Positions 15,188-47,239 of a stretch of DNA of 64,000 nucleotides are shown piece by piece (within the stretch, counting starts at the first letter, position 1; each line of letters opens with the position of its first letter). Both the position numbers and the translations under genes were made by a program. The notes under the pieces are model-generated. The model made no database searches, was not told the origin of the DNA, and saw nothing but the letters and a program-made list of their open reading frames with translations. The stretch lies in assembly GCF_009931435.1 (NCBI RefSeq), contig NZ_CP043414.1. One strand, given 5' to 3'. The stretch comes from Escherichia coli (GTDB lineage Bacteria; Pseudomonadota; Gammaproteobacteria; Enterobacterales; Enterobacteriaceae).

Positions 15188-15434
15188 AATCTCGCGCTAA
15201 CAACCTGGAATCGAGCCGTCATACTACGGCGCAACGCCCTATAAAGTAAACGATGACCCTGCGGGAACTTCAGGGTAAAATGACTATCAAAATGTGAATT
15301 GCAGCTGACCTGGGACTTGTACCCGGGTCGGTATTTTTTTGCTTCTGGTCCCGGTGAGGAGTTATGCCGGGCAGGCCGAACAGCTGGGGTGGGTGGAGAC
15401 TCGCCCCATCAGGAATATTCAAGAGGTATAACAA

Positions 15435-21990: not shown

Positions 21991-22077
21991 GCCGAGGTGG
22001 TGGAATTGGTAGACACGCTACCTTGAGGTGGTAGTGCCCAATAGGGCTTACGGGTTCAAGTCCCGTCCTCGGTACCA
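21991..22077 (+). tRNA. leuU: tRNA-Leu (anticodon GAG)
   Basis: GCCGAGGTGGTGGAATTGGTAGACACGCTACCTTGAGGTGGTAGTGCCCAATAGGGCTTACGGGTTCAAGTCCCGTCCTCGGTACCA; long variable arm; 14 nt after secG stop. Confidence 0.95.
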
Positions 22078-25857: not shown

Positions 25858-25934
<77 letters not shown>

Positions 25935-26056
25935 CTTTCCCTTAGAGTCCTTTTTCAAATATACTGTGAAGACTTCGGCCTTCGTAGTGGGATTTGAAAA
26001 AATCCTTCTGGAAAGTGCTCCAGACCGCAGTTGCGGTTATAGGGTTCAGTTATATA

Positions 26057-26087
26057 AAGCCCCGATTTATCGGGGTTTTTTGTTATC
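26057..26087 (+). terminator. intrinsic terminator/attenuator between metY and rimP
   Basis: AAAGCCCCGATTTATCGGGGTTTTTTGTT. Confidence 0.75.
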
Positions 26088-26140
26088 TGACTACAGAATA
26101 ACTGGGCTTTAGGCCCTTTTTTTATGTCTTGGGGGTGGGC

Positions 26141-26620: not shown

Positions 26621-28108
<1,488 letters not shown>

Positions 28109-28132
28109 TAAACTGTAGCAGGAAGGAACAGC

Positions 28133-30805
28133 ATGACAGATGTAACGATTAAAACGCTGGCCGCAGAGCGACAGACCTCCGTGGAACGCCTGGTACAGCA
28201 ATTTGCTGATGCAGGTATCCGGAAGTCTGCTGACGACTCTGTGTCCGCACAAGAGAAACAGACTTTAATTGACCACCTGAATCAGAAAAATTCAGGCCCG
28301 GACAAATTAACGCTGCAACGTAAAACCCGCAGCACCCTTAACATTCCTGGTACCGGTGGAAAAAGCAAATCGGTACAAATCGAAGTCCGCAAGAAACGCA
28401 CCTTTGTGAAACGCGATCCGCAAGAGGCTGAACGCCTTGCTGCGGAAGAGCAGGCGCAGCGTGAAGCGGAAGAGCAAGCCCGTCGTGAGGCAGAAGAATC
28501 GGCCAAACGCGAGGCGCAACAAAAAGCTGAACGTGAGGCCGCAGAACAAGCTAAGCGTGAAGCCGCTGAACAAGCGAAACGTGAAGCTGCGGAAAAAGAC
28601 AAAGTGAGCAATCAACAAGACGATATGACTAAAAACGCCCAGGCTGAAAAAGCCCGCCGTGAGCAGGAAGCTGCAGAGCTCAAGCGTAAAGCTGAAGAAG
28701 AAGCGCGTCGTAAACTCGAAGAAGAAGCACGTCGCGTTGCTGAAGAAGCACGTCGTATGGCGGAAGAAAACAAATGGACTGATAACGCGGAACCGACTGA
28801 AGATTCCAGCGATTATCACGTTACTACTTCTCAACATGCTCGCCAGGCAGAAGACGAAAGCGATCGTGAAGTCGAAGGCGGCCGTGGCCGTGGTCGTAAC
28901 GCGAAAGCAGCGCGTCCGAAGAAAGGCAACAAACACTCTGAATCAAAAGCTGATCGTGAAGAAGCACGCGCAGCAGTACGTGGCGGTAAAGGCGGGAAAC
29001 GTAAAGGTTCTTCGCTGCAGCAAGGCTTCCAGAAGCCAGCTCAGGCCGTTAACCGTGACGTTGTGATTGGCGAAACCATCACCGTTGGCGAACTGGCGAA
29101 CAAGATGGCGGTTAAAGGTTCTCAGGTCATCAAAGCGATGATGAAACTGGGCGCAATGGCAACCATCAACCAGGTTATCGATCAGGAAACCGCACAGCTG
29201 GTTGCTGAAGAGATGGGCCACAAAGTTATCCTGCGTCGTGAAAACGAGCTGGAAGAAGCGGTAATGAGCGACCGTGACACGGGTGCTGCGGCTGAACCGC
29301 GCGCGCCGGTTGTGACCATCATGGGTCACGTTGACCACGGTAAAACCTCTTTGCTGGACTACATTCGTTCAACGAAAGTGGCCTCTGGCGAAGCGGGCGG
29401 CATTACCCAGCACATTGGTGCATACCACGTTGAAACTGAAAACGGCATGATCACCTTCCTGGACACCCCGGGGCACGCCGCGTTTACTTCAATGCGTGCA
29501 CGTGGTGCGCAGGCAACGGACATCGTAGTCCTGGTTGTTGCTGCCGACGACGGCGTAATGCCGCAGACCATCGAAGCAATTCAGCACGCGAAAGCGGCAG
29601 GCGTGCCGGTTGTGGTTGCAGTGAACAAGATCGACAAACCAGAAGCCGATCCAGATCGCGTTAAGAACGAACTCTCTCAGTACGGCATCCTGCCGGAAGA
29701 GTGGGGCGGTGAAAGCCAGTTCGTACACGTGTCTGCGAAAGCAGGTACCGGTATCGATGAACTGCTGGACGCTATCCTGTTGCAGGCAGAAGTTCTGGAA
29801 CTGAAAGCGGTACGTAAAGGTATGGCGAGCGGTGCGGTTATCGAATCCTTCCTCGATAAAGGTCGTGGTCCGGTTGCTACTGTTCTGGTACGTGAAGGTA
29901 CTCTGCACAAGGGCGACATCGTTCTGTGTGGTTTCGAATACGGTCGTGTTCGCGCAATGCGTAACGAAATGGGTCAGGAAGTGCTGGAAGCAGGTCCGTC
30001 CATTCCAGTTGAAATCCTTGGCTTGTCCGGTGTTCCGGCTGCGGGTGACGAAGTTACCGTAGTGCGTGACGAGAAGAAAGCTCGTGAAGTTGCACTGTAT
30101 CGTCAGGGCAAATTCCGTGAAGTTAAACTGGCACGTCAGCAGAAATCGAAACTCGAGAACATGTTTGCCAACATGACTGAAGGCGAAGTTCACGAAGTGA
30201 ACATCGTTCTGAAGGCAGACGTTCAGGGTTCCGTGGAAGCGATCTCCGACTCCTTGCTGAAACTGTCTACTGACGAAGTTAAAGTGAAGATCATCGGTTC
30301 TGGCGTAGGTGGTATCACCGAAACCGACGCTACCCTGGCTGCGGCGTCCAACGCCATCCTGGTTGGCTTCAACGTACGTGCTGATGCCTCTGCACGTAAA
30401 GTGATTGAAGCGGAAAGCCTGGATCTGCGTTACTACTCCGTCATCTATAACCTGATCGACGAAGTGAAAGCGGCGATGAGCGGTATGCTGTCTCCGGAAC
30501 TGAAACAGCAGATTATCGGTCTGGCGGAAGTTCGTGATGTGTTCAAATCACCGAAATTTGGTGCCATCGCAGGTTGTATGGTTACTGAAGGTGTGGTTAA
30601 ACGTCACAATCCGATCCGCGTTCTGCGCGACAACGTGGTTATCTACGAAGGCGAGCTGGAGTCCCTGCGCCGCTTCAAAGATGACGTTAACGAAGTCCGT
30701 AACGGTATGGAATGTGGTATCGGCGTTAAGAACTACAACGACGTCCGCACTGGCGATGTGATCGAAGTATTCGAAATCATCGAGATCCAACGTACCATCG
30801 CTTAA
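28133..30805 (+). CDS. infB: translation initiation factor IF-2
   Basis: 890 aa; G-domain GHVDHGKTS; N-terminal [12 protein letters not shown] repeats. Confidence 0.97.
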
Positions 30806-30820: not shown

Positions 30821-30896
30821 ATGCGGGATAAGGCGTTTACGCTGCATCCGGCATGGATTGCCTGATGCGACGCTGGCGCGTCTTATCAGGCCTACG
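30821..30896. repeat. REP pair (BIME) between infB and rbfA
   Basis: inverted copies of the GCCTGATGCGACGC...CTTATCAGGCCTAC REP motif. Confidence 0.8.
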
Positions 30897-32366: not shown

Positions 32367-32732
<366 letters not shown>

Positions 32733-32747: not shown

Positions 32748-32778
32748 GAAAAGGGGCCTGAGTGGCCCCTTTTTTCAA
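32748..32778 (+). terminator. rpsO intrinsic terminator
   Basis: GAAAAGGGGCCTGAGTGGCCCCTTTTTTCAA. Confidence 0.88.
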
Positions 32779-32977
32779 ACTGACGGCAGCAATTCACTGG
32801 AAACTAATGTATTGTTGCTATGAATGATCTTCCGTTGCAGAGGTTCGCGCGGCTAATGAGAGGCTTTACCCACATTGGGCTGGGTTAGGGTTGTCATTAG
32901 TCGCGAGGATGCGCAGAAGATCGGGTATTAACACCAGTGCCGTAAGGTGCTGTCTAAGAAAGAGAAAGGATATTACA

Positions 32978-47062: not shown

Positions 47063-47239
47063 TGTCGGATGCGGCGTAAACGCCTTATCCGACCTACGGT
47101 TTGCATCGTTGCAGGCCTGATAAGACGCGGCAAGCGTCGCATCAGGCAACGGCAGTCGGATGCGGCGCAGGCGCCTTATTCGACCTACGGTTTGTGTCGT
47201 GTAGGCCTGATAAGACGCGGCAAGCGTCGCATCAGGCAT
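47063..47239. repeat. tandem BIME: two ~91 bp units each carrying two REP motifs
   Basis: unit 47065-47147 and near-identical unit 47156-47237 (TCGGATGCGGCG...GCCTGATAAGACGCGGCAAGCGTCGCATCAGGCA). Confidence 0.85.

Follow-up and report, generated by a model that had tools for sequence, protein, structure and literature searches.

The infB locus and its internal in-frame codons

The window analysed here is a 64,000-nucleotide stretch of Escherichia coli DNA (assembly GCF_009931435.1, contig NZ_CP043414.1). It contains an operon in the order metY-rimP-nusA-infB-rbfA-truB-rpsO-pnp, which matches the order found in K-12 and was established from open reading frames together with Rfam and ARAGORN; the S15 leader, between truB and rpsO, and the antisense SraG, between rpsO and pnp, were also placed in this operon by Rfam/ARAGORN. 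The infB reading frame comprises 890 codons followed by TAA and is the sole long ORF at its position. Its product shows the Pfam domains IF2_N (twice), IF2_assoc, GTP_EFTU, EF-G_D2, IF-2 and GTP_EFTU_D2, and of 5426 complete E. coli genomes, 5425 contain a match to the 1.2-kb stretch around the internal codons described below, annotated there as nusA/infB. The ORF is the infB orthologue and encodes IF2. The features of the region are collected in Table 1.

Table 1. Position of infB, its start codons and the neighbouring features in the window.
Feature	Position	Strand	Basis or remark
metY tRNA	25858-25934		Rfam/ARAGORN
rimP leader	26023-26123		Rfam/ARAGORN
nusA, directly 5' of infB, same operon	26621-28108	+	ORF list, annotation, K-12 gene order
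Shine-Dalgarno-like AGGAAGGA, 5' of the primary ATG	28120-28127	+	Sequence; anti-SD duplex -6.5 kcal/mol
infB CDS, full-length IF2-1 (IF2-alpha)	28133-30805	+	ATG start, 890 aa; ORF list and translation
24-nt-period tandem array, (A/E)EQAKREA repeats	28524-28598	+	Tandem Repeats Finder; 6 nt short of GTG158
Core of the internal initiation region, GCGGAAAAAGACAAAGTGAGCAATCAA, codons 153-161	28589-28615	+	(Near-)codon-invariant, A-rich, unstructured
GTG, codon 158, start of IF2-2 (IF2-beta)	28604-28606	+	CDS 28604-30805
ATG, codon 165, start of IF2-3 (IF2-beta' / IF2-gamma)	28625-28627	+	CDS 28625-30805
24-nt-period array, KAEEEARR repeats	28685-28748	+	Tandem Repeats Finder; 3' of the spacer with both starts
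REP/naRNA4 element, between infB and rbfA	30822-30892		Rfam/ARAGORN

Counting in frame from the first letter of infB places a GTG at codon 158 (28133 + 157 × 3 = 28604) and an ATG at codon 165 (28133 + 164 × 3 = 28625), 21 nt or 7 codons apart, in the translated context REAAEKDK-V158-SNQQDD-M165-TKNAQAEK. A first-pass annotation of the window had reported these two codons, and the numbers, identities, coordinates and frame it gave for them are exact on direct reading. It had also set them within a repetitive region, which is a minor inaccuracy. Besides the two arrays of Table 1, Tandem Repeats Finder delimits another 24-nt (8-aa) repeat array at 28442-28497, and both codons fall within an 86-nt non-repetitive spacer between arrays (28599-28684), after the EAAEQAKR array and outside the repeat units.

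The presence of such codons is not in itself beyond chance, as infB holds 48 in-frame ATG, GTG or TTG codons. With start-type codons this common, the two could be ordinary Val and Met codons that stand in frame by accident and go unused as starts in the strain from which the window comes. What takes them beyond chance is their positional and sequence orthology with K-12, the conservation of the codons across species and the unusual local properties of the mRNA.

Identity with K-12 and published use of the internal starts

The RefSeq record of K-12 MG1655 carries three infB CDSs that share a common end and start at 3316014, 3315543 and 3315522, i.e. at offsets of 0, +471 and +492 nt, which correspond to codons 1, 158 and 165. 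The tandem translation of infB in K-12 (IF2-1, IF2-2 and IF2-3) and the locus in the window share the gene, the operon, the codon numbers and the codon identities. Over the whole gene the two alleles differ at 76 nucleotides, mostly silently, and at three amino acids (A269S, Q490G and L613M), so that 887 of 890 residues are identical. No allelic change touches the internal initiation region: from 28565 to 28821, that is from 39 nt upstream of GUG158 to 215 nt downstream of it, the sequences are the same base for base. Of 5426 E. coli genomes, 5304 hold an exact copy of the 30-mer that spans both starts (28602-28631); in one of the approximately 121 others, codon 159 has changed synonymously from AGC to AGT and both starts are kept.

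Internal initiation in infB has been known since 1985-1992, and methods that map start sites today use its sites as positive controls; the internal starts are textbook knowledge and are annotated in the reference genome. Genetic data come from substitutions in K-12: g474c (GUG to GUC) and t494c (AUG to ACG), at nucleotides that lie within codons 158 and 165, eliminate IF2-2 and IF2-3 (Madison et al. 2012, PMC3334882). Both short forms are also made by a deletion construct whose gap begins 14 nt upstream of AUG1 and ends 32 nt upstream of GUG158 (PMC3334882), which, AUG1 being gone, argues for autonomous initiation. Mallikarjun and Gowrishankar give the infB start codons as 1, 158 and 165, and TRAINSPOTTER N-terminomics recovered infB peptides at 3316014 (0, ATG), 3315543 (+157, GTG) and 3315522 (+164, ATG) (PMC13245402). 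In the same data the K-12 peptide at 158 begins with Met, GUG being read as Met, and that of the 165 form begins MTKNAQ... (PMC13245402). Ribosome profiling of two E. coli strains with retapamulin (Ribo-RET) gave specific initiation peaks at the internal infB site already known, and there is evidence for a homologous short infB proteoform in S. Typhimurium.

The first-pass annotation had assigned the two codons to the shorter IF2 isoforms, and the K-12 RefSeq record, the mutants and the N-terminal peptides all agree with this. It had pointed to published isoform N-termini and to ribosome-profiling initiation peaks as the places to look; the K-12 peptides do begin at 158 and 165, published E. 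coli data do show the Ribo-RET peak at the known internal site, and a mismatch between the codon positions and the documented starts, which it named as the outcome that would overturn the assignment, is not what we found, since the positions coincide. Its name for the 165 form, IF2-gamma, is one that the current literature employs (PMC12297416); the same protein is called beta' in RefSeq and IF2-3 elsewhere.

Short forms of this kind might also be produced if a protease cut full-length IF2 near residue 158, where the charged linker is, judging by its composition, probably disordered and would be accessible to proteases. The peptides argue otherwise: elongation would insert Val at position 158, and the Met found there proves initiation as opposed to proteolysis. 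The genetics point the same way, with single-base changes in the start codons abolishing the short forms and loss of AUG1 preserving them (PMC3334882), as do the initiating ribosomes that Ribo-RET places at the internal site. For K-12 these data refute cleavage, which we consider to be extremely improbable.

Chance in-frame codons fare no better against these data, the context of both being identical to that of K-12, where they are proven starts. By virtue of this identity, the strain of the window would likewise make (f)Met-started proteins from residues 158 and 165.

Conservation of the internal initiation region in Enterobacteriaceae

Residues 1-390 of the IF2 query were searched against species-representative genomes, and the best 80 of 248 matches were taken. 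The resulting 80 loci, from approximately 35 genera of Enterobacteriaceae and with 82-94% identity, were brought into a protein-guided codon alignment. All 81 sequences (best 80 of 248 matches) have GTG at codon 158, an invariance that does not amount to 80 independent observations, since the 80 species are related and all belong to the Enterobacteriaceae. Valine columns offer an internal comparison: of the 18 that are conserved, only 158 (GTG) and 85 (GTC) are codon-invariant, while 16/18 mix GTN codons. The alignment indicates that selection acts on the start codon GTG158 itself, beyond the amino acid it encodes.

The second start is less constant. Other Enterobacteriaceae, among them Salmonella, Klebsiella, Citrobacter and Enterobacter, share GTG158 in their infB genes, whereas ATG165, found in 72/81 sequences, is absent from 9/80 species, including Entomohabitans, Trabulsiella (2), Mangrovibacter (3), Shimwellia and Tenebrionibacter. 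None of the nine has a replacement start near the lost ATG165. Given that ATG165 is missing from nine species, IF2-3 is the less conserved product, and not a universal one; species without this codon would make one short form only.

Synonymous sites were examined by normalised entropy in 11-codon windows. The minimum of the first 390 codons is found at codons 151-161 (0.106), compared with typical values of 0.3-0.7 elsewhere and 0.215 for the eleven codons that open the gene. Codon-invariant columns are likewise concentrated here, making up 7/9 of the columns at codons 153-161 and 28/322 overall (hypergeometric P = 5.7e-7). The element GTGAGCAATCAA is conserved across Enterobacteriaceae infB, and a GCGGAAA motif 5' of GTG158, which holds a weak Shine-Dalgarno-like GGA(A) at 28591-28594, is invariant across the alignment. 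Both the invariance of GTG158 in 81/81 sequences and the strongest synonymous constraint of the first 390 codons around it are hard to reconcile with codons that stand in frame by accident.

At synonymous sites no other part of the first 390 codons, the opening eleven included, is as constrained as GCGGAAAAAGACAAAGTGAGCAATCAA, and the block at 28589-28615 could conceivably do more than provide a start codon and a weak Shine-Dalgarno sequence: it might be an operator or enhancer, specific in sequence, by which the ratio of IF2-1 to IF2-2/3 is set or regulated. We think this unlikely. Candidate binders for such an operator would be S1, IF2 itself, a cold-shock factor or a small RNA.

Shine-Dalgarno pairing and mRNA structure

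Pairing with the anti-Shine-Dalgarno sequence is uneven among the three starts. The predicted duplex is -6.5 kcal/mol at AUG1, the strongest of the 48 in-frame start-type codons, and -3.5 and -1.9 kcal/mol at GUG158 and AUG165. The candidate at GUG158 is a GGA approximately 10 nt upstream; strong complementarity at 5-9 nt upstream was not found at GUG158 or at AUG165. The want of a strong Shine-Dalgarno sequence at either internal site is what one would expect of codons that are unused as starts.

Local folding separates the three starts from the remaining start-type codons. In 63-nt local folds the three starts between them take the three weakest places of 48 (-2.9, -6.8 and -7.3 kcal/mol, listed from the weakest, the rest ranging from -10 to -29), although the windows of codons 158 and 165 overlap and the three starts are not three independent draws. 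That the internal sites and AUG1 should be the three least structured of 48 again speaks against chance codons, which, with the K-12 identity and the conservation, we judge to be exceedingly unlikely. Among 880 codon-centred windows along infB (mean -15.1, sd 4.2 kcal/mol) the eight least structured are all at codons 155-163, where A makes up 44-49% of the sequence, and the window of GUG158 ranks fourth for low structure. Low structure is conserved in the orthologues, in which the codon-158 window ranks between 1 and 24 of approximately 399, with a median of approximately 6.

How extreme the accessibility is depends on the measure. When unpaired probability was computed with plfold (W=150, L=100, 20-nt stretch) over positions -15 to +5, GUG158 ranked 143 of 2882 (top 5%), AUG165 15 and AUG1 339, so that the result is less extreme for GUG158 by plfold.

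A conserved RNA structure was not found: RNAalifold over 25 genera gave -9.8 kcal/mol, with -0.5 as the covariation term and a single compensatory pair, and the single-sequence fold at the internal start region is unremarkable (z = -0.13). A permissive Rfam search over 28400-28800 returned a chance-level RAGATH-8 fragment only, at 12 bits against a gathering threshold of 86.7. A 4-bp GCGG/CCGC closure predicted by the folding is invariant and hence uninformative.

Two antisense ORFs on the minus strand, 28282-28611 and 28307-28936, were set aside as shadows of the repetitive GAA/GCN/CGT coding sequence, since they are unannotated in K-12 and the synonymous sites of infB vary freely in the flanks.

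Alternative routes considered for GUG158

A +1-frame ORF of 56 codons (28437-28607) ends at a TGA (28605-28607) that overlaps GUG158 in the sequence GUGA, an arrangement that would allow ribosomes terminating there to restart on the internal codon, and all 81 sequences have the GTGA overlap. The conserved Ser/Thr/Ile of the second codon explains the constant A after GTG equally well. The ORF itself is not conserved: the open stretch in the +1 frame measures anything between 5 and 73 codons across species, in seven of them it lacks a start codon, and the GTGs of that frame are by-products of the CGTGAA repeat. In K-12, moreover, 32 nt upstream of GUG158 are enough for IF2-2/3 (PMC3334882). Stop-start coupling at GUGA was rejected on the lack of conservation of this ORF, and we regard termination-reinitiation as very improbable.

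The internal codon could also be brought near a 5' end by a separate, shorter transcript arising from an internal promoter or from processing. This operon does have internal promoters that respond to cold, located in nusA or upstream of it (PMC6511841), but they lie upstream of AUG1 of infB and outside infB. A scan of 28000-28800 on both strands, made with the consensus only, gave no sigma-70-like matches, and expression of IF2-2/3 from heterologous promoters and deletion constructs has no need of infB DNA beyond 32 nt upstream. A dedicated transcript carries about the same very low probability in our estimation as reinitiation does.

Probable initiation at three starts on one mRNA

The reading we favour, with a probability of about 0.95, is that a single infB mRNA, transcribed within its normal operon, bears three in-frame starts, and that the internal ones are used through de novo binding of 30S subunits. 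We found no evidence that contradicts this three-start model.

Under it, AUG1 would direct the synthesis of full-length IF2-1 (alpha, 890 aa), GUG158 that of IF2-2 (beta; residues 158-890, with fMet in first place instead of Val), and AUG165 that of IF2-3 (beta'/gamma; residues 165-890). The 30S subunits would load independently and de novo inside the infB coding sequence, on a conserved, A-rich and nearly unstructured landing region at approximately 28589-28640, in the spacer between the arrays. The weak Shine-Dalgarno-like GGA(A) approximately 10 nt 5' of the GUG would be of slight help, and the loaded ribosomes would take one or the other of the two starts, which are separated by 21 nt. We infer that loading is driven by accessibility over Shine-Dalgarno pairing, and the invariant GCGGAAA may act as a weak Shine-Dalgarno sequence or as an enhancer. 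A 2002 study by Laursen et al., in Genes Cells 7:901, is said to have dissected the mRNA requirements of the infB internal site.

Comparison with other systems and isoform function

Other E. coli genes, namely clpB, mrcB, cheA, clpA and speA, likewise give a full-length and an N-truncated protein from an internal in-frame start. They are different genes with different domains, whereas infB has two tandem starts, a weak Shine-Dalgarno sequence and an open A-rich region. To our knowledge, the infB genes of Bacillus subtilis and other non-enteric bacteria that have alpha and beta forms possess N-terminal regions that cannot be aligned with the E. coli spacer, and their starts are non-homologous.

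With the starts themselves already established, what is new here are the cross-species numbers: the invariant GTG, the minimum at synonymous sites and the structure-free window. This three-part signature could serve to search for other internal starts. It also bears on annotation, where all the PGAP-style records listed carry a single infB CDS, hiding two real products.

These products differ from IF2-1 in what they lack. The short forms miss Domain I, which comprises the N1 subdomain plus a linker (residues 1-157), and IF2-3 is without residues 1-164. Only IF2-1 binds NusA's C-terminal domain, via Domain I (PMC12297416), and IF2-1 alone supports DNA-damage tolerance, while the short forms keep the translation function but are deprived of the IF2-1 interactions that concern NusA and genome maintenance. 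Long and short IF2 are both needed for optimal growth, and the balance between them affects growth, cold adaptation and recombination.

infB allele and its distribution in E. coli

The infB allele differs unevenly from that of K-12: divergence is approximately threefold higher in the 3' two-thirds of the gene than in the 5' third (window 29500-30650), a distribution that suggests a mosaic or recombinant allele. Within the more divergent part, all three bases of codon 490 are changed (CAG to GGC; window 29599-29611), replacing Gln by a Gly that is also found at this position of IF2 in Salmonella and Citrobacter, and silent differences from K-12 adjoin this codon. By sequence comparison, the infB/nusA segment belongs to a minority allele group that includes, for example, strain 2013C-4282: among the 5425 complete E. 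coli genomes, just 18 reach 99% identity or more over the 1.2 kb at 28000-29200, the remainder ranging from 95 to 99%. This segment matches up to five places in some E. coli genomes, and one E. coli record carries a plasmid-borne copy of nusA/infB.

In approximately 121 of 5426 E. coli genomes, the 30-mer that covers the two internal start codons of infB (around 28604-28629) has no exact match. In the single variant examined (L082, strain Z0117EC0056), the change is synonymous, AGC to AGT at codon 159.

Other features of the window

The leaders, tRNAs and sRNA listed in the table below are already known and expected for this chromosomal region; two REP-type elements were also matched. The two long antisense ORFs have no counterpart in the K-12 annotation, and we rejected them as genes: the coding strand opposite is GAA/GCN/CGT-rich, and we judge both to be its shadow ORFs.

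RNA elements and candidate ORFs, in window coordinates
Feature	Position	Strand	Remarks
greA leader	15218-15339		
tRNA-Leu(GAG)	21991-22077		
metY, initiator tRNA-Met	25858-25934		
rimP leader	26023-26123		
Antisense ORF, 109 aa	28282-28611	-	overlaps repetitive part of infB
Antisense ORF, 209 aa	28307-28936	-	overlaps repetitive part of infB
+1-frame ORF, 56 codons	28437-28607	+	TTG start; TGA overlaps GTG158 as GUGA
naRNA4 (REP-type)	30822-30892	+	Rfam match; infB-rbfA gap
S15 leader	32405-32519		
SraG sRNA, antisense	32748-32919	-	
naRNA4 (REP-type)	47114-47185	-	Rfam match

The TGA of the +1-frame ORF is invariant in all 81 aligned sequences. The open frame upstream of it is not conserved, varying from 5 to 73 codons and lacking a start codon in seven species, and the CGTGAA repeats in infB appear to generate this ORF incidentally.

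Internal starts across Enterobacteriaceae

The IF2 N-terminus encoded by contig L048 (CACSKA010000008.1, labelled 'Chryseobacterium sp. 18061') is, at 83% identity, enterobacterial and Buttiauxella-like; the contig is probably a contamination or a mislabelled assembly.

In the codon alignment of the best 80 of 248 matches, ATG165 (28625-28627) is absent from 9 of 80 Enterobacteriaceae species (loci L017, L047, L049, L066, L071, L072, L076, L077, and L081), among them members of Trabulsiella, Mangrovibacter, Shimwellia, Entomohabitans, and Tenebrionibacter, whereas GTG158 is invariant in the same set. These nine species should produce only one short form of IF2.
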